Positions 1,597 to 5,943 of a DNA stretch of 44,605 nt are shown piece by piece. Below the pieces are notes generated by a model, which had not been told where the DNA came from, did not search any database, and saw only the letters and a list, made by a program, of their open reading frames with translations. The position numbers and the translations under genes were made by a program. Every line of letters starts with the position of its first letter. The first letter of the stretch is position 1. This stretch comes from Shigella phage DS8. The stretch lies in the sequence record MK759854; one strand, 5' to 3'.

Positions 1597-1994
1597 TGGC
1601 AGCAAAACTCAAAGGCATTAACGAAGCCATAGCCAGAACATCTCAGATTGTGGATGAGATAATCGCCACGAAAGCTGTGCGTGCTCTGAAGTCAGCGACA
1701 TACATCATCCGCACCGAATCAGCCACGTTGACGCCGATTGATACATCGACTCTGATTAACAGTCAGTTTGATACTGTGGAAGTTAGCGGAACGAGAATCA
1801 CTGGCAAGGTTGGCTACTCTGCAAAATATGCGCTGTACGTCCACAATGCCAGTGGCAAACTTGCAGGTAAACCGCGCAGCAACGGCAATGGCACGTATTG
1901 GAGCCCGGGAGGTGAACCACAATTCCTGGCCAAAGCAGCGCAACGCACAAAAGACCTGGTTGATGGTGTAATTAAGAAGGAGATGAAGCTGTGA
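1593..1994 (+). CDS. putative tail component (HK97 gp10-like)
   Basis: 133-aa ORF; start overlaps upstream stop; size, position and C-terminal GTYWSPGG-type segment resemble HK97 gp10-family tail components (from memory). Confidence 0.45.
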   Translation: MMAAKLKGINEAIARTSQIVDEIIATKAVRALKSATYIIRTESATLTPIDTSTLINSQFDTVEVSGTRITGKVGYSAKYALYVHNASGKLAGKPRSNGNGTYWSPGGEPQFLAKAAQRTKDLVDGVIKKEMKL

Positions 1995-2365
1995 ATATGC
2001 TTGAACTGGTTGATGCATATCTTCAGGAAGCCGGATTATACGATGGCTGGACTTCGCAGTTGCAGTTCTGGAATGATACCGGAGATGGCAACGAGCAGTT
2101 TATTGTTTTGCAATCCAATGGTGGCACTCAGGTTATGGATGGCCTCGGTGGTGACTTCTATTTCTCGCTGTATGTTGTTGGCAAACATGGACAGTACAAT
2201 GTATCAGATGTTGATGCGAAGGCGCTGGAGATTATCGAATACATCAAGACGCATCCGATTGATTCATGTGTTAACTATATCCAGTTGCAGGCTCCGCTCG
2301 GTAGGCCAATGCTGACGGAAGAAAAGCGACCTGTGCATGAGTTGCTTTTGCGGGTTGTGAAATAA
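1991..2365 (+). CDS. putative tail completion/terminator protein
   Basis: 124-aa ORF; GTG at 1991 with AAGGAG 8 nt upstream (alternative ATG at 1997); last gene before the noncoding region. Confidence 0.4.
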   Translation: MNMLELVDAYLQEAGLYDGWTSQLQFWNDTGDGNEQFIVLQSNGGTQVMDGLGGDFYFSLYVVGKHGQYNVSDVDAKALEIIEYIKTHPIDSCVNYIQLQAPLGRPMLTEEKRPVHELLLRVVK

Positions 2366-2440
2366 ATAAAGCCGCACTTGGCGGCCTTATTGCTGGTTTA
2401 AGTATTGCCAGCGTGCTTTCTTAACATCCAGCCCAGTAAC

Positions 2441-2470
2441 CCATACATACCCCTACATACCCCTACATAT
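2441..2470. repeat. three tandem 10-mers CCMTACATAY
   Basis: CCATACATAC / CCCTACATAC / CCCTACATAT read directly, inside the 840-bp ORF-poor region. Confidence 0.6.
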
Positions 2471-3127
2471 GATTGCGATAATGCTGGATGTTAAGTGTTG
2501 TGGTGGCCGGTGTCGAACTCCGGCGTGACGGGATTTTCAGTTCAAGGCTTGCAGCGACCGCCTTATACACTACCTCGCCATCGGTTGCTTACTTGCGCAT
2601 CGACCTGCGCATTCACCACAACGGTAAGAGCACTGGCTAACCAGGCGCGCCGACTCTTCACGATTATCGACTCAATGCTCTTACCTGTTGTGTGCAGGGT
2701 TTCCACCTGCTCCCATCTGTTTTTAAAGTCACTCAGATATCGTCTGGACTTGTTGTGGAGTGGCGCACCATCTCACTCTTGAATGTTAACCCACTCCCAG
2801 CACCTCAACACACACTACGGTTAAGATTATTGCGCGTGTTGTATGGTCTTGCTGGTCACAACGGGAATAGTACTGATGCGCTCACTTGGTACTCCTTAGC
2901 CGTAACCCACGGGCTTCCGGTACATCAATACTATTTCCTGTTATGTTCCCTGACTTATTAATCACACCTCAGGGACGCAGTGCGCCGAATTTGTTTACAA
3001 GGAATCGGAAGACCTTGCTGACTTACAGGCTATTACGCCGCCATCAGAACAACATCATCGTTTGCATTTATCTTTGTGGTCAGTTTCTAAAAACCCGCAA
3101 AGTCGCTCACGAAAACTATCTGAAATA

Positions 3128-3172
3128 CAATCTACACCACAAAATAATCACTGTCAACACCTGTGATATAAT
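3128..3172 (+). promoter_or_regulatory. putative promoter for major tail gene: motif CAATCTACACCAC plus extended -10 TGATATAAT
   Basis: Conserved motif at 3128-3140; TGATATAAT at 3164-3172; ATG at 3209 with GGAG RBS. Confidence 0.4.
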
Positions 3173-3208
3173 CACCACGTTAGCAGCTAACACAATTCGG
3201 AGATCGAA

Positions 3209-3925
3209 ATGGCTATTTGTGCAAATGATAAAGGCGTTCTTGTCGGTCGCATGACTCGACTATTCCTTGCTGAAGGGTGCGGTGACGCAGTTCCTGATGC
3301 AGAAGACTGGAAGTATTTAGGTTCAACCACAAGCAAAGGTGTTGACTACTCTCCGCAGACTACCACGTCTGAAGCGGATACCGCTGGCGGCTTTGTTTCC
3401 ACTCTCGTTACCAGCTCTGATATGACCATCAGCGCAGAGGTTGAAATCCGCAAGAATGACCCAAGCGATGAGTTTGGCTTCCATCGTCTGGTTGAGATTT
3501 ACGCCACTGAACTGAAAGCGCGTCGCCAGCCTTCCTTGTGGGTGCGTGAAGTAACTGGCGCGACTATCGTTACTGCGTACTGCAACATTACCAGCATCAG
3601 CTACGAAGGCGGCACAAACGACATCGTAACCGGCAGCCTTGAGTTCAAGGTTTACGATTCAGATAGCGTTACCGTCGAAAGCCTTGAGCCTCTGGCATTC
3701 ACTACCGACCTGCAATCAACTGGCAGCACTGGCAGCCCGTTAACTGTTGCTGTTGAGGGTGGTGTTGCTCCTTACACTTACGTATGGCGCAAAGATGGCG
3801 TGGTTGTTGGTGGTGAGTCTGGCGCATCGCTGACAAGTCCTACTGCTGGTGTATATACCGTTACGGTCACGGATTCGTCCACTGACCCGGAAATTATTAT
3901 CAGCACGGCTTGCACCGTATCCTGA
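3209..3925 (+). CDS. major tail protein with C-terminal Ig-like domain
   Basis: 238 aa; GGAG RBS; C-terminal segment (TVAVEGGVAPYTYVWRKDGVV...YTVTVTD) typical of Ig-like domains on siphovirus major tail proteins; lies upstream of chaperone and tape measure. Confidence 0.75.
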   Translation: MAICANDKGVLVGRMTRLFLAEGCGDAVPDAEDWKYLGSTTSKGVDYSPQTTTSEADTAGGFVSTLVTSSDMTISAEVEIRKNDPSDEFGFHRLVEIYATELKARRQPSLWVREVTGATIVTAYCNITSISYEGGTNDIVTGSLEFKVYDSDSVTVESLEPLAFTTDLQSTGSTGSPLTVAVEGGVAPYTYVWRKDGVVVGGESGASLTSPTAGVYTVTVTDSSTDPEIIISTACTVS

Positions 3926-3926
3926 T

Positions 3927-3960
3927 AAAGAAAAAGCCCCGAAAGGGGCTTTATTTTATT
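3927..3960. terminator. bidirectional rho-independent terminator
   Basis: Hairpin AGCCCC-GAAA-GGGGCT (3935-3950) flanked by an A-run upstream and TTATTTTATT downstream. Confidence 0.6.
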
Positions 3961-4150
3961 CTTGTGGTGGATCTGGTAACGGCATCCAGTGAGTAACATC
4001 CTGTCGAATAGGAACAACACCGTATGCGTCATCCCATCGGCCTTCGAAATAATACAGAGTTGATATGTCGCCTCCCTTGAAACATGCGAGAACCTCTTGT
4101 TCTGCATTTTCATCCGGCATCTGCTCACTACACTTAATCCACTGGCTCAT
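3956..4150 (-). CDS. DUF551-like phage protein
   Basis: 64 aa; motif W..C.E.MP...(x)...HWMPLPDPP matches the DUF551 pattern as I recall it; start overlaps upstream stop (ATGA). Confidence 0.55.
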   Translation of the reverse strand: MSQWIKCSEQMPDENAEQEVLACFKGGDISTLYYFEGRWDDAYGVVPIRQDVTHWMPLPDPPQE

Positions 4151-4461
4151 AATTTATCCTCATTCATTTTAAGGAAGACGATCATGGCGGCGCGTAGTGG
4201 GTTTCCATGCTGGCAAATAAACACATCATCACCACGGAACATCATTACTGCACTATTTGTTGCCAACGGACAATCTTGTCCATTATTTTGAATGACGTCA
4301 ATTTCATACTCAACAATAATGGGCCACGCATCAGCTGGGTTTTGGCATGGATTCCACTTGCCAGAATGTATTTCATGCGCAAATGATTTTGAAGTCCAAT
4401 TGCTAGCCTTTGCTACTTCGCAGTTAATTTCAAAATCACTCATGTCTTCATAATTTTTCAT
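4147..4461 (-). CDS. hypothetical protein
   Basis: 104-aa ORF, translationally coupled at both ends. Confidence 0.45.
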   Translation of the reverse strand: MKNYEDMSDFEINCEVAKASNWTSKSFAHEIHSGKWNPCQNPADAWPIIVEYEIDVIQNNGQDCPLATNSAVMMFRGDDVFICQHGNPLRAAMIVFLKMNEDKL

Positions 4462-4601
4462 ATCACCTTATCCTCATCAAAAATCACACCAATTACACGA
4501 AGCAAGTCTTTCGCCATTCTCTCTGCTTCTTCGTAGTCATAACCTGCATCAACATACAGTTCAGTGTAGAAAATCAGATCAGCTTTTGTTTGTTCGTTCA
4601 T
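4458..4601 (-). CDS. small acidic protein (47 aa), hypothetical
   Basis: ORF found by hand below the 60-aa track cutoff: MNEQTKADLIFYTELYVDAGYDYEEAERMAKDLLRVIGVIFDEDKVI; ATGA overlaps on both sides. Confidence 0.3.
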   Translation of the reverse strand: MNEQTKADLIFYTELYVDAGYDYEEAERMAKDLLRVIGVIFDEDKVI

Positions 4602-4804
4602 TTCTTATCGTCGCTCTTAACTAACGCCCAGACGAGTGCTGCAACCCATCCAATAAAGCTCCATCCAACGAGAATATTCAGAACGCAAATTGCCGTAGTG
4701 TTTACATGCTTGCGTTGCAGGGCTACAAAAGATGGTAGAAGGTACACAAATATCACCAAACCAACGAAAAACAACAAAATAACAACATCCATAGCTAACC
4801 TCAA
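4598..4804 (-). CDS. small two-pass membrane protein resembling superinfection-immunity (Imm-like) proteins
   Basis: 68 aa; two hydrophobic helices with pattern ...AICVLNILVGWSFIGWVAALVWAL...; family resemblance is from memory. Confidence 0.5.
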   Translation of the reverse strand: MRLAMDVVILLFFVGLVIFVYLLPSFVALQRKHVNTTAICVLNILVGWSFIGWVAALVWALVKSDDKK

Positions 4805-4824
4805 CTGTTAATAGCTTGTTTATA

Positions 4825-5118
4825 TTACATGCCATTCTTTTCGCACAAAGCAACAGCCACATCACGCAATTGCTCTTTTGTCATATCCTTGCGTGCATAA
4901 ACCATTTCTACGATGGCAAGGCCGATTATTTCTGCTGATTCGTTGTTTTTTGCGGAACCCTTAACTACCACCTCGGCAAGATTCTTGCTGATACCGTTAT
5001 CGCGAACTTCAGCTGTGTTCATGGCGATATCTCCGATGTTTTTGCAAACCTCAGATGTTGCGACAGCAGAGAAAGAAGAAGCTAACAAGACAGACGCGAT
5101 CAACATTTTAATTTTCAT
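4825..5118 (-). CDS. small secreted/periplasmic protein, hypothetical
   Basis: 97 aa; N-terminal signal-peptide-like segment MKIKMLIASVLLASSFSAVA; GAGGTGAG RBS; first gene of the antisense island. Confidence 0.45.
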   Translation of the reverse strand: MKIKMLIASVLLASSFSAVATSEVCKNIGDIAMNTAEVRDNGISKNLAEVVVKGSAKNNESAEIIGLAIVEMVYARKDMTKEQLRDVAVALCEKNGM

Positions 5119-5154
5119 AACTCACCTCATTTATTCATCACTCGTTTCGATGAC

Positions 5155-5206
5155 TTGAATCTACATCACCACCTCACAGGTGTCAACACCACTGAGATGA
5201 TATAAT
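5155..5206 (+). promoter_or_regulatory. putative promoter/operator: motif TTGAATCTACATCACC, palindrome GGTGTCAACACC, extended -10 TGATATAAT
   Basis: Elements read directly at 5155-5170, 5179-5190 and 5198-5206; lies between divergent genes (5118 leftward, 5227 rightward). Confidence 0.4.
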
Positions 5207-5226
5207 CAACATCAGTCAAATTCAGG

Positions 5227-5943
5227 ATGCAAAACATGAGCAATCGCACGCCACTAACAGAAATCGGAGAGATGCGCATCTCGCTTTCTGACAGGAGTTT
5301 TTTCTTTAAACCATCATTCCGCGCCATGAATGAAATTGGCACACCAAAAGAAATCGTTGAGGTGTACGCTAAGCTCAATGGCATTGATTATGTTGCGCCA
5401 TTGCAGCACGTCGAATACCTGCCATTTGGCGCGCAGATGCAGGTTATGAAGACAATCAGCAAGCCAGTGTATGGTCGACATGTGCTGAACGCGGCCTATA
5501 TTGTCATGCAGTCATGTTGTGAGGATGATATTTCTGTGCTGATTGGTGGATGGAAGCCAACACCGCGCGGCGTGCGATATGTTCCCGGCATCATGCCGGT
5601 GAGTGACATTATTATTATTGCGCGCAATCTGATGCAGCATGGCATCATTGGCAAGTCACCGCTCAAGGTTCCTGAGCGTCTGGAAGAGCAGGGCAAGAAA
5701 ACTACAAACGAGTTTCATGCGTCGCAATACATTATTTCAGCACGCACGCATTTCGACATGACGCGCGATGAGGCAGAAAACCTGTCCATGACAGAGTTTC
5801 AGATGATGATTAAGAATAAATACCCAGAGCCGAAAGGGTTAACGAAAGAGGAGCGCGCGGCAGAGTACGATCAGGCTAAAGCAGACCGCGAGCGCATGAA
5901 GGCACTGGCTGAACGCAAAGCGAAAAAAGCGAGGAATACATAA
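5227..5943 (+). CDS. putative tail assembly chaperone
   Basis: 238-aa ORF immediately upstream of and coupled to the tape measure gene (TAATG); positional assignment. Confidence 0.45.
   Translation: MQNMSNRTPLTEIGEMRISLSDRSFFFKPSFRAMNEIGTPKEIVEVYAKLNGIDYVAPLQHVEYLPFGAQMQVMKTISKPVYGRHVLNAAYIVMQSCCEDDISVLIGGWKPTPRGVRYVPGIMPVSDIIIIARNLMQHGIIGKSPLKVPERLEEQGKKTTNEFHASQYIISARTHFDMTRDEAENLSMTEFQMMIKNKYPEPKGLTKEERAAEYDQAKADRERMKALAERKAKKARNT

Follow-up and report, generated by a model that had tools for sequence, protein, structure and literature searches.

Phage-borne transfer-messenger RNA (tmRNA, ssrA) has been surveyed in cluster C mycobacteriophages and Bacillus phage G, and mycobacteriophage DS6A carries a form reduced to the tRNA-like domain (TLD) that inhibits host tmRNA and presumably interferes with trans-translation; no enterobacterial phage tmRNA appears in these surveys (PMC4131195, PMC11915505). 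STnc100 and PasD, abundant and expressed Hfq-associated small RNAs (sRNAs) of prophages, are encoded next to the antiterminator gene Q (bioRxiv 10.64898/2026.05.13.724894). Here we describe a gap at positions 2366-3208 in the tail operon of Shigella phage DS8 (MK759854), a Skatevirus-type siphophage whose nearest annotated relative is Salmonella virus KFS-SE2 (classified Skatevirus). All coordinates refer to the window, the whole 44.6-kb stretch (44,605 nucleotides) that was analysed. The gap is an independent leftward promoter-to-terminator unit for non-coding RNA, antisense to the tail operon, and we consider it probable that this accessory unit yields small RNAs that are processed, carried on scaffolds and possibly involved in trans-translation. 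Its ingredients (tmRNA message, tRNA-like folds and STnc100-like sRNAs) are known ones, combined in an arrangement that we have not found described.

The leftward promoter (3157-3129) is kept in every relative that carries RNA modules and is gone from the two (L030, L031) in which a protein gene fills the slot, and the terminator (2385-2371) is kept at the slot end in all relatives. Sequence similarity to prophage copies starts at 3120, approximately the predicted +1; alternative 5' modules of relatives part ways directly after TAGATT, and Aeromonas phage pIS4-A has the same promoter-plus-module layout. The minus strand carries a chain of modules that fold independently, in order a tag module, cassette 1, epsilon, cassette 2, alpha and a 3' hairpin domain (~750 nt). 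Folded as minus-strand RNA, 3122..2366 reaches -266 kcal/mol compared with -230 +/- 7 for shuffled sequences (z = -5.4), bearing out the structure that an earlier note on this DNA had seen in the region. The helices of the chain are backed by compensatory changes plus G.U changes specific to the minus strand; as these G.U pairs would be A.C on the other strand, they support a minus-strand RNA. GC skew, which goes negative over the gap, was the first hint of information on this strand. The meaningful content of the gap is that of the minus strand, and the earlier note had used the wrong one: of its candidate of a structured noncoding RNA, the structured RNA stands, while the single RNA inside the late operon gives way to a multi-module unit with a leftward promoter of its own.

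The tag module resembles the message part of a tmRNA. Its conserved 5' block (GUUUUCGU..GCGACUUUGCGGG..UAGAAACUGACCA) precedes a tag frame that has no AUG, GUG or UUG start and an in-frame UAG eight codons upstream. UAAAU stands directly before the GCA resume codon, with conserved U at -5 and A at -4. All 22 distinct phage-type versions, composed of the complete matches left over from a genome pattern scan and of copies from phage records, hold exactly 10 codons and a stop. Their tags include ANDDVVLMAA, ANDDLMLMAA, ANDDLMMVAA (P1), ANDDLMLQAA and ANDDYKLAAA, together with ANDNTFLAVA and ANDSEVLMAA in Kuttervirus, ANEEMYLAVA in an Aeromonas phage and ANDDVVLMSA in N4-like phages. Along a minimum spanning tree of these variants, 31 of 65 substitutions in the tag frame are synonymous (48%; expected 24%; p = 2.7e-5), compared with 6 of 62 (10%) and 12 of 62 (19%) in the other two frames. 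Even the resume and Asn codons drift synonymously (GCA/GCT and AAC/AAT in Kuttervirus). The hairpin after the stops, at the position of tmRNA helix 5, varies on both sides at three of its five pairs among 14 sequences (CAAGG/CCUUG, UGAGG/CCUCA, CGGGG/CCCCG), and the terminal hairpin keeps its loop GUGUGAUUAAUAA constant on stems that vary across versions (GCCCG/GGGC, UCCCUGA/UCAGGGA, GUCCCCGU/ACGGGGA). A possible P2-like helix that would join the ends of the module has a few wobble-compatible changes in its favour. A tmRNA message part is thus present and evolves as if it were read and translated.

As a positive control, the pattern AAATGCAAACGATGA-N13-25-GCNGCNTAA was run over one genome per species, and it returned mostly genuine bacterial tmRNAs with few new phage-type copies. 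Of 120 genome matches to the 15-mer AAAUGCAAACGAUGA with GCNGCNUAA, 103 fall within tmRNAs that ARAGORN calls; these control tmRNAs belong to beta-proteobacteria and Legionella and carry tags such as ANDESYALAA and ANDENFAMAA. Endings in MAA, QAA and VAA are found in genuine tmRNAs. The Rfam covariance scan that the earlier note had called for places no family at threshold in the window and, over the region, the window and the relatives, gives sub-threshold matches of the tmRNA and STnc100 types, the latter weak and in one relative, the former centred on AUAAAUGCAAACGAUGAUGUUGUUCUGAUGGCGGCGUAAUAG (tmRNA_permuted, 27.3 bits, E 0.003, threshold 47; beta_tmRNA, E 0.0036). The module combines a frame starting with GCN, U-5/A-4, a hydrophobic-A-A ending and a stop, and the window holds neither the G3:U70 pair nor the CCA end of a tRNA-like domain. 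Measured against that domain, alpha has U:A at 3:70, a 9-nt loop (AGUUCGACA) and CAC in place of CCA. A search for alanine-type acceptors near tag modules gave an ordinary tRNA-Arg of a Rouxiella prophage as its sole match, and this candidate was rejected. That gene, ~334-410 nt after the tag in L224, is a phage-type tRNA-Arg (UCU) with G3:U70, the alanine identity pair, which could allow mischarging.

The alpha module, like the cassettes, has a constant framework around a hypervariable interior. It is closed by a 7-bp stem, inside which follow an AAU linker, the hairpin GCGCA-GGUCGA-UGCGC with a 6-nt loop containing GG, a 70-nt variable core, and the hairpin GCCGG-AGUUCGACA-CCGGC abutting the 3' strand; its geometry is that of a tRNA with the anticodon arm replaced. 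Among 46 distinct copies of alpha there are 37 different cores of 33-162 nt. In the framework alignment (A4), 10 of 19 pairs are changed on both sides and 96% of cells are paired, and none of 500 shuffles equals this. For epsilon, RNAalifold predicts 33 pairs from five homologs, and compensatory changes affect 11 of these. The overall account counts two tRNA-shaped modules, each closed by the 7-bp stem UGUGGUG/CACCACA (epsilon is entered with its own closing pair in Table 1). ARAGORN and Rfam call no tRNA in the window, and the likeness of alpha and epsilon to tRNA is one of cloverleaf-like topology only. A related module (L145, 3972-4096) scores 44.5 bits as a tRNA, but its anticodon loop is replaced by a UGAA tetraloop, and a gamma module in L034 matches RF00023 (E 5.7e-6) and has a canonical T arm.

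The 3' domain adds covariation of its own: alignment A3 contains C:G to U:A changes and several U.G pairs that are valid on the minus strand only. It includes a small hairpin (2412-2408 with 2396-2392), and the loop of the window copy is one 10-nt repeat longer than those of relatives. Each junction between cassette and module carries GUUGUG(GUG), which ends the cassette and begins the next module and can pair with CACAAC either upstream, closing the cassette, or downstream, closing the module. Where one P1-type module has a C for the U of this motif, both partners carry the compensating change (CGUAAC, GUUGCG, CACCGCA), which points to a role for each of the two pairings, for instance one ahead of processing and the other after it.

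The two hairpin cassettes follow a family plan of CACAAC, a bulged A, a 13-bp stem (GGUAAGAGCAYUG / CAGUGCUCUUACC) and GUUGUG. Cassette 1 has a diverged family stem (GGAAAUAGUA/UACUAUUCCC), and its payload recurs within the canonical stem in L011 and L017; the exact 19-mer 5' half of cassette 2 occurs in more than 120 viral contigs. Payloads measure 35-176 nt and are wholly different between copies, with 73 distinct ones in 122 copies that hold the exact 19-mer and 84 in the structural search. Among the 45 distinct stems of family alignment A2, 10 of 19 pairs are changed on both sides, a number reached by 0 of 500 shuffles, and pair 18:27 is U.G in 36 of the 45. Some payloads (L153, L126, L025, L129) contain T-arm-like hairpins or hammerhead-like strings (CUGAUGAG-GCC-GCAA-GGC ... 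GAAAC). A hammerhead ribozyme was considered for the latter (CUGAUGAG...GAAAC) and set aside, as no Rfam ribozyme reaches gathering score there.

The slot itself varies among relatives. The gap is present in all 33 related contigs, at 451-1595 bp, and modules are shuffled between them, with exchange occurring at the constant motifs. One or two tRNA genes (tRNA-Met CAT, tRNA-Arg) precede the terminator in most relatives and are absent from the window; tRNA-Met (CAT) sits between the 3' domain and the terminator, a place matching 2386-2392. Some relatives also hold tRNA-Arg, a small open reading frame (ORF) or an HNH endonuclease gene there, the last being the case in KFS-SE2. In L030 and L031, the slot is occupied by a Rha/KilAC antirepressor gene unrelated to the window sequence. 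On these comparisons, the slot is a leftward accessory locus inside the tail operon. In L005, L009, L011 and L022, the place of the tag module is taken by other 5' modules that start UGGAUUUAACAGAGAUUGG... or AAAGUCUACUUAAGAUAUGAAUUG...; both kinds end ...GCCGGACGCGUAACCGGCA, and neither has an Rfam match.

Beyond Skatevirus, unannotated DNA with 88% identity to the tag module is present in 858 of 5426 complete E. coli genomes, and 485 phage records match the module. The copy in E. coli 55989 belongs to a lambdoid prophage, where it is placed between antiterminator Q and holin, with two cassettes flanking it and a tRNA-like module with a canonical T arm following. Of 121 viral contigs, at least 42 have a recognisable Q gene with a cassette starting ~95 nt behind it (lambdoid late leaders), and one or more of the lambdoid probe genes are present in 67; in CUS-3, the homologous segment lies between annotated 'boundary sequences'. 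P1 and ~500 P1-like plasmids hold the whole array in the C1-controlled ban leader, after an annotated 'dicF-like region', where the tag module is joined by tRNA-Asn, tRNA-Thr, at least five cassettes and several alpha-type modules. Further copies of the tag module come from Klebsiella phage-plasmids (~110 kb), from Cronobacter phage CS01 and Aeromonas phage pIS4-A, from long gene-poor stretches of Kuttervirus and Taipeivirus with other tRNA-like elements, and from the end of an eight-tRNA array in N4-like phages (SP-076). Ackermannviridae, Schitoviridae, Drexlerviridae and Roufvirus are among the phage groups with modules. At 17 of 121 loci there are canonical tRNAs on the strand of the modules, and wherever such tRNAs are near they share this strand; the association extends to most Skatevirus relatives, P1 and N4-like SP-076. 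ARAGORN is negative on the prophage and plasmid copies also.

Three lytic-phase promoter contexts are represented: the sigma-70 promoter of the window, the lambdoid late leader and the C1-repressed Pban of P1. In the lambdoid context, the late promoter, here taken to be Q-dependent, is followed by a terminator-like hairpin, and the modules lie beyond that hairpin. By sequence comparison, the modules are kept in at least eight unrelated phage groups, and the gap belongs to a widespread, unannotated family of phage RNA modules.

Several of these loci offer further observations. The plp and upl genes annotated at 1371-1940 of P1 (L156, NC_005856) lie on the opposite strand, overlap the RNA array and may be spurious ORFs over structured RNA genes. 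In EP75 (Kuttervirus, L285), a 67-nt 'putative tRNA-Ala' is annotated at 186-252, 150 nt upstream of the tag module; its acceptor is GGUGAGG/CCUCGCC (U3.G70), its T arm is canonical and it lacks an anticodon arm, and it is a candidate for the tRNA-like partner of the tag module in that lineage. Kuttervirus SE14 (L281, 925-3530) and N4-like SP-076 (L282, 1440-1530) contain gene-poor stretches of up to 2.6 kb with many T-arm elements, among them a recurring, ARAGORN-negative, Y-RNA-like type with a long stem around a T arm (CAUUGACAGGUGGA ... GGGUUCGAGUCCC ... ACAGUG).

Comparison with RNA families gives a graded picture. Scans of the region, the window and the relatives with Rfam return no riboswitch, ribozyme, GOLLD, ROOL or Y RNA. 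The last P1-type module reaches 37.8 bits (E 3.8e-6) against STnc100 (RF02076), for which the gathering score is 47, and the Skatevirus relatives give no match to this family at E <= 0.05. A DNA hairpin site of the integron attC kind was also rejected: GUUGUGG and CACAAC misfit GTTRRRY / RYYYAAC, many pairs are G.U, and no integrase accompanies them. Searchable literature on the tag peptides, on phage tmRNA-like RNAs and on non-coding RNA of Skatevirus/Guernseyvirinae holds no description of the modules, and none of the tag peptides turns up in it.

The reading that we consider probable proposes that the precursor would be cut into stable small RNAs by host tRNA and double-stranded-RNA processing enzymes, RNase P acting on the closing stems of the tRNA-like modules and the ~20-bp cassette stems being cut by RNase III or RNase E. 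The constant tRNA-like and long-stem frames would serve as processing and stability scaffolds, and the variable interiors would supply specificity as base-pairing or decoy RNAs against the host in lytic growth, an effector role suggested by the likeness to Hfq-bound STnc100 and PasD, which one P1-type module resembles. The tag module would give the degradation-tag template ANDDVVLMAA to ribosome rescue, or interfere with rescue. A number of results weigh against this proposal. Both the start near 3122 and the sites of cleavage are predicted. Over the whole 44.6 kb, ARAGORN calls neither a tRNA nor a tmRNA, the Rfam matches within the window all stay below gathering score, and the window, alpha and epsilon included, has no match to RF02076 at E <= 10. 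A search around the phage-type tag modules gave no G3:U70 minihelix with encoded CCA, and a partner that would deliver the tag template to the ribosome was not found. Beyond the tag core, similarity to E. coli ssrA is not significant (z 0.2-1.7, global alignment), base-pairing to host tmRNA is no better than for shuffles, and RNA complementarity to the phage's own genome gives chance-level matches only. The shuffle controls overstate significance because the aligned sequences are related, and the percentage of paired cells in the cassettes is partly circular, as these were picked by sequence plus complementarity; the alternative complementary sequences in the cassette stems are free of that circularity.

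A broader form of this idea, in which enterobacterial phages of at least eight unrelated lineages exchange an RNA kit (a message-only tmRNA for a phage-specific degron of 10 residues, and hypervariable inserts on two constant scaffolds, a tRNA-shaped frame and a bulged long stem) that rewires ribosome rescue and delivers fast-evolving effectors in lytic growth, the message being used by a non-canonical, not alanine-type, tRNA-like partner, is rather unlikely. It is unlikely, too, that trans-translation is split, with a tRNA-shaped module being trimmed, CCA-added and aminoacylated and, with SmpB, bringing the tag module to stalled ribosomes; the outcome would be the phage's own degron ANDDVVLMAA on rescued proteins, or extra rescue capacity. 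Such a system would account for coding-type constraint on a frame without a start codon, for the conserved U-5/A-4 and for endings (MAA, QAA, VAA) like those of genuine tmRNAs, and it fits the constant occurrence of the tag module in one array with tRNA-like modules, some of which have a canonical T arm (gamma in L034, KpS110, EP75). Pseudoknots 2-4 of tmRNA are dispensable, which we also count in its favour. It meets an obstacle in the missing G3:U70 and encoded CCA, in the freedom with which the tag module joins any downstream module type and lies upstream or downstream of the tRNA-like element, in the position of the window's 5' UGUGGUG copy, which is part of the promoter spacer and precedes the predicted start, and in the failure of ARAGORN and Rfam to detect a one- or two-piece tmRNA architecture. 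An improbable alternative is that the modules are decoys or inhibitors directed at host ribosome rescue or at tRNA-directed defences and, with no productive use of their own, titrate SmpB, tmRNA-interacting factors, tRNA-modifying or -processing enzymes, or anticodon or acceptor nucleases. The inhibition of host tmRNA by the TLD-only tmRNA of DS6A gives this a precedent (PMC4131195, PMC11915505), and a tRNA shape without anticodon loop, fast turnover of the variable parts and spread over lytic phages fit an arms race; a pure decoy, however, has no need of a constant-length frame with synonymous drift, and no target was found.

Two further accounts assign the RNAs no function or deny them altogether. 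That the modules are recombination linkers acting at the DNA level, or leftovers of a decaying tRNA array, is highly improbable: module exchange at constant motifs, the 'boundary sequences' of CUS-3, the loss from the window of the tRNA-Met kept by most relatives and the promoter spacer resembling a relic half-cassette could all be so explained, but not helices kept by compensatory changes and rich in G.U pairs that would be A.C in duplex DNA or on the other strand, nor selection on the tag frame and conservation of modules in at least eight unrelated phage groups. The other two candidates of the earlier note, a headful packaging (pac) site and a frameshifted or decayed protein gene, are hardly credible. 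Only the absence of ORFs and the Rha/KilAC antirepressor gene in the slot of L030 and L031 speak for them. Slot content is swapped wholesale among close relatives, whereas a pac site, usually in or beside the small terminase gene, would be conserved in position, and the same modules occur elsewhere in unrelated phages, including those with other packaging (P1, lambda-like). No frame has homologs, the sequence is accounted for by covarying RNA helices, and at this place relatives hold RNA modules and no remnant of a gene.

The genes on either side of the gap are those named in the earlier note (Table 1), and its view that 2366-3208 contains no credible protein gene holds: the plus-strand ORFs 2495-2782, 2692-2961 and 2886-3254 overlap and have zero Pfam matches. 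The decamers that it listed are real, Tandem Repeats Finder giving a 10-nt unit in 3.1 copies at 2439-2469, as is the palindrome GGCGCGCC at 2644-2651. The promoter that it assigned to the major tail gene corresponds to a perfect extended -10 element, TGaTATAAT (3164-3172, plus strand), upstream of the ATG, which escaped the consensus promoter scan because it has no -35 hexamer. This element stands back to back with the leftward promoter (3129-3157, minus strand), 7 nt from its -35 hexamer, and the two promoters may compete or be co-regulated; the 5' untranslated region of the major tail gene is ~30 nt with a GGAG Shine-Dalgarno sequence. The spacer of the leftward promoter, CAGUGAUUAUUUUGUGGUG (3133-3153, minus strand), is similar to a cassette 3' half together with GUUGUGGUG (CAGUGCUCUUAUCGUUGUGGUG), and the promoter seems to have arisen within a relic cassette. 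On the 3' side of the major tail gene, 3950-5250 is low in GC (38-43%) and holds several small minus-strand ORFs (for example 4147-4461, 4458-4601, 4598-4804 and 4825-5118). This region looks like a second leftward accessory island in the tail operon, and the matching place in KFS-SE2 is annotated 'immunity to superinfection'.

Table 1. Predicted elements of the leftward unit, in minus-strand order, and the two genes that enclose it
Feature	Position	Strand	Description
Sigma-70 promoter TTGACA-N17-TAGATT	3129..3157	-	10/12 consensus positions; predicted start near 3122
tmRNA-message-like domain (MLD) module, ~175 nt	2947..3122	-	5' block, tag frame, post-stop hairpin, AAAUUCGGCGCACUG, terminal hairpin
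Start-less tag frame, ANDDVVLMAA + 2 stops	3030..3065	-	GCA AAC GAT GAT GTT GTT CTG ATG GCG GCG TAA TAG
Hairpin CAAGG-N10-CCUUG after stops	2998..3017	-	tmRNA helix 5 position
Terminal hairpin UCCCUGA-GGUGUGAUUAAUAAG-UCAGGGA	2947..2975	-	loop kept, stems vary
Cassette 1, CAUAAC-A-GGAAAUAGUAUUG [payload] CAGUACUAUUCCC-GUUGUG	2857..2945	-	structural search; -31.9 kcal/mol
Epsilon, four-way cloverleaf closed by GUUGUG/CACAAC	2752..2862	-	last arm abuts 3' strand of closing stem
Cassette 2, CACAAC-A-GGUAAGAGCAUUG [43-nt payload with GGCGCGCC] CAGUGCUCUUACC-GUUGUG	2617..2692	-	structural search
Alpha, tRNA-shaped scaffold	2497..2622	-	7-bp closing stem UGUGGUG/CACCACA, next base A
Conserved 3' domain	2391..2496	-	13-bp stem (2495-2483 with 2432-2420) around G-rich loop with decamers
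Bidirectional intrinsic terminator GCCGC-N5-GCGGC	2371..2385	both	T-run 2370-2360 on minus, partial T-run on plus
Tail terminator	1991-2365		PF23842, E 2.5e-40
Major tail protein	3209-3925		annotated as such in KFS-SE2

If the proposed reading is true, RNA genes of an unannotated class sit in seemingly empty gaps of hundreds of sequenced phages and prophages, and in several records spurious hypothetical ORFs have been drawn over these gaps. Among the carriers are P1, P22-like and lambda-like phages, Vi1-like and N4-like therapeutic candidates, and Klebsiella phage-plasmids. The tag module would then be the first message-only derivative of tmRNA, and it raises the question of whether trans-translation can be fed by a template not covalently joined to an alanyl-tRNA-like domain, or whether rescue is jammed by it. 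The constant frame with a variable insert resembles a synthetic tRNA scaffold and suggests a natural, fast-evolving repertoire of phage effector RNAs, which bears on how phages take over hosts and counter their defences as well as on phage engineering. It would also give the orphan sRNAs STnc100 and PasD a structural and evolutionary context.

Set against known systems, the tag module shares with tmRNA (ssrA) a start-less frame of 10 codons with a GCA resume codon after UAAAU, an A-N-D start, an (M/V/A)-A-A end, stop codons in or beside a hairpin, and the 15-mer AAAUGCAAACGAUGA common to beta-proteobacterial and Legionella tmRNAs. It differs in being free-standing in phages, without a tRNA-like half in cis, G3:U70, a CCA end or pseudoknots PK1-PK4. 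DS6A has the tRNA-like half without the message and the window element the message without the tRNA-like half, so that both are partial, phage-borne tmRNA derivatives. STnc100 and PasD resemble alpha in having a UGGUG/CACCA closing stem with AAU and a 5-bp hairpin after it, a middle that varies and, abutting the 3' strand, a terminal hairpin, and they lie downstream of Q in lambdoid prophages, as the lambdoid module copies do. They have been published as individual Hfq sRNAs and not as tRNA-shaped scaffolds in arrays with cassettes and a tag, and the relation is one of shared architecture, not of membership.

The Y RNA-like YrlA (RF02553; PMC4201824) combines a long stem with a tRNA-like domain, and some payloads have T-arm-like hairpins. 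Assignment to this class was rejected: the cassette stems have no GNCGAAN0-1G Rsr motif, the window has no Rfam match to it, and no rsr gene lies nearby. With phage tRNA arrays, the modules share strand and transcript with bona fide tRNAs, as well as acceptor-like and T-like helices and a likely processing by tRNA enzymes; unlike those tRNAs, the alpha-type modules have no anticodon arm, vary in their cores (33-162 nt) and are ARAGORN-negative. Tracts of this kind are familiar from T4, whose species 1 and 2 RNAs are tRNA-like stable RNAs of a phage tRNA array. A parallel in design is the engineered 'tRNA scaffold' that Ponchon and Dardel reportedly introduced in 2007 for recombinant RNA expression in E. 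coli. Both keep a constant acceptor, D-like and T-like frame and accept arbitrary RNA at the position of the anticodon arm, whereas the phage version, in its presumed scaffold role, is natural and joined with a second scaffold built on a long bulged stem.

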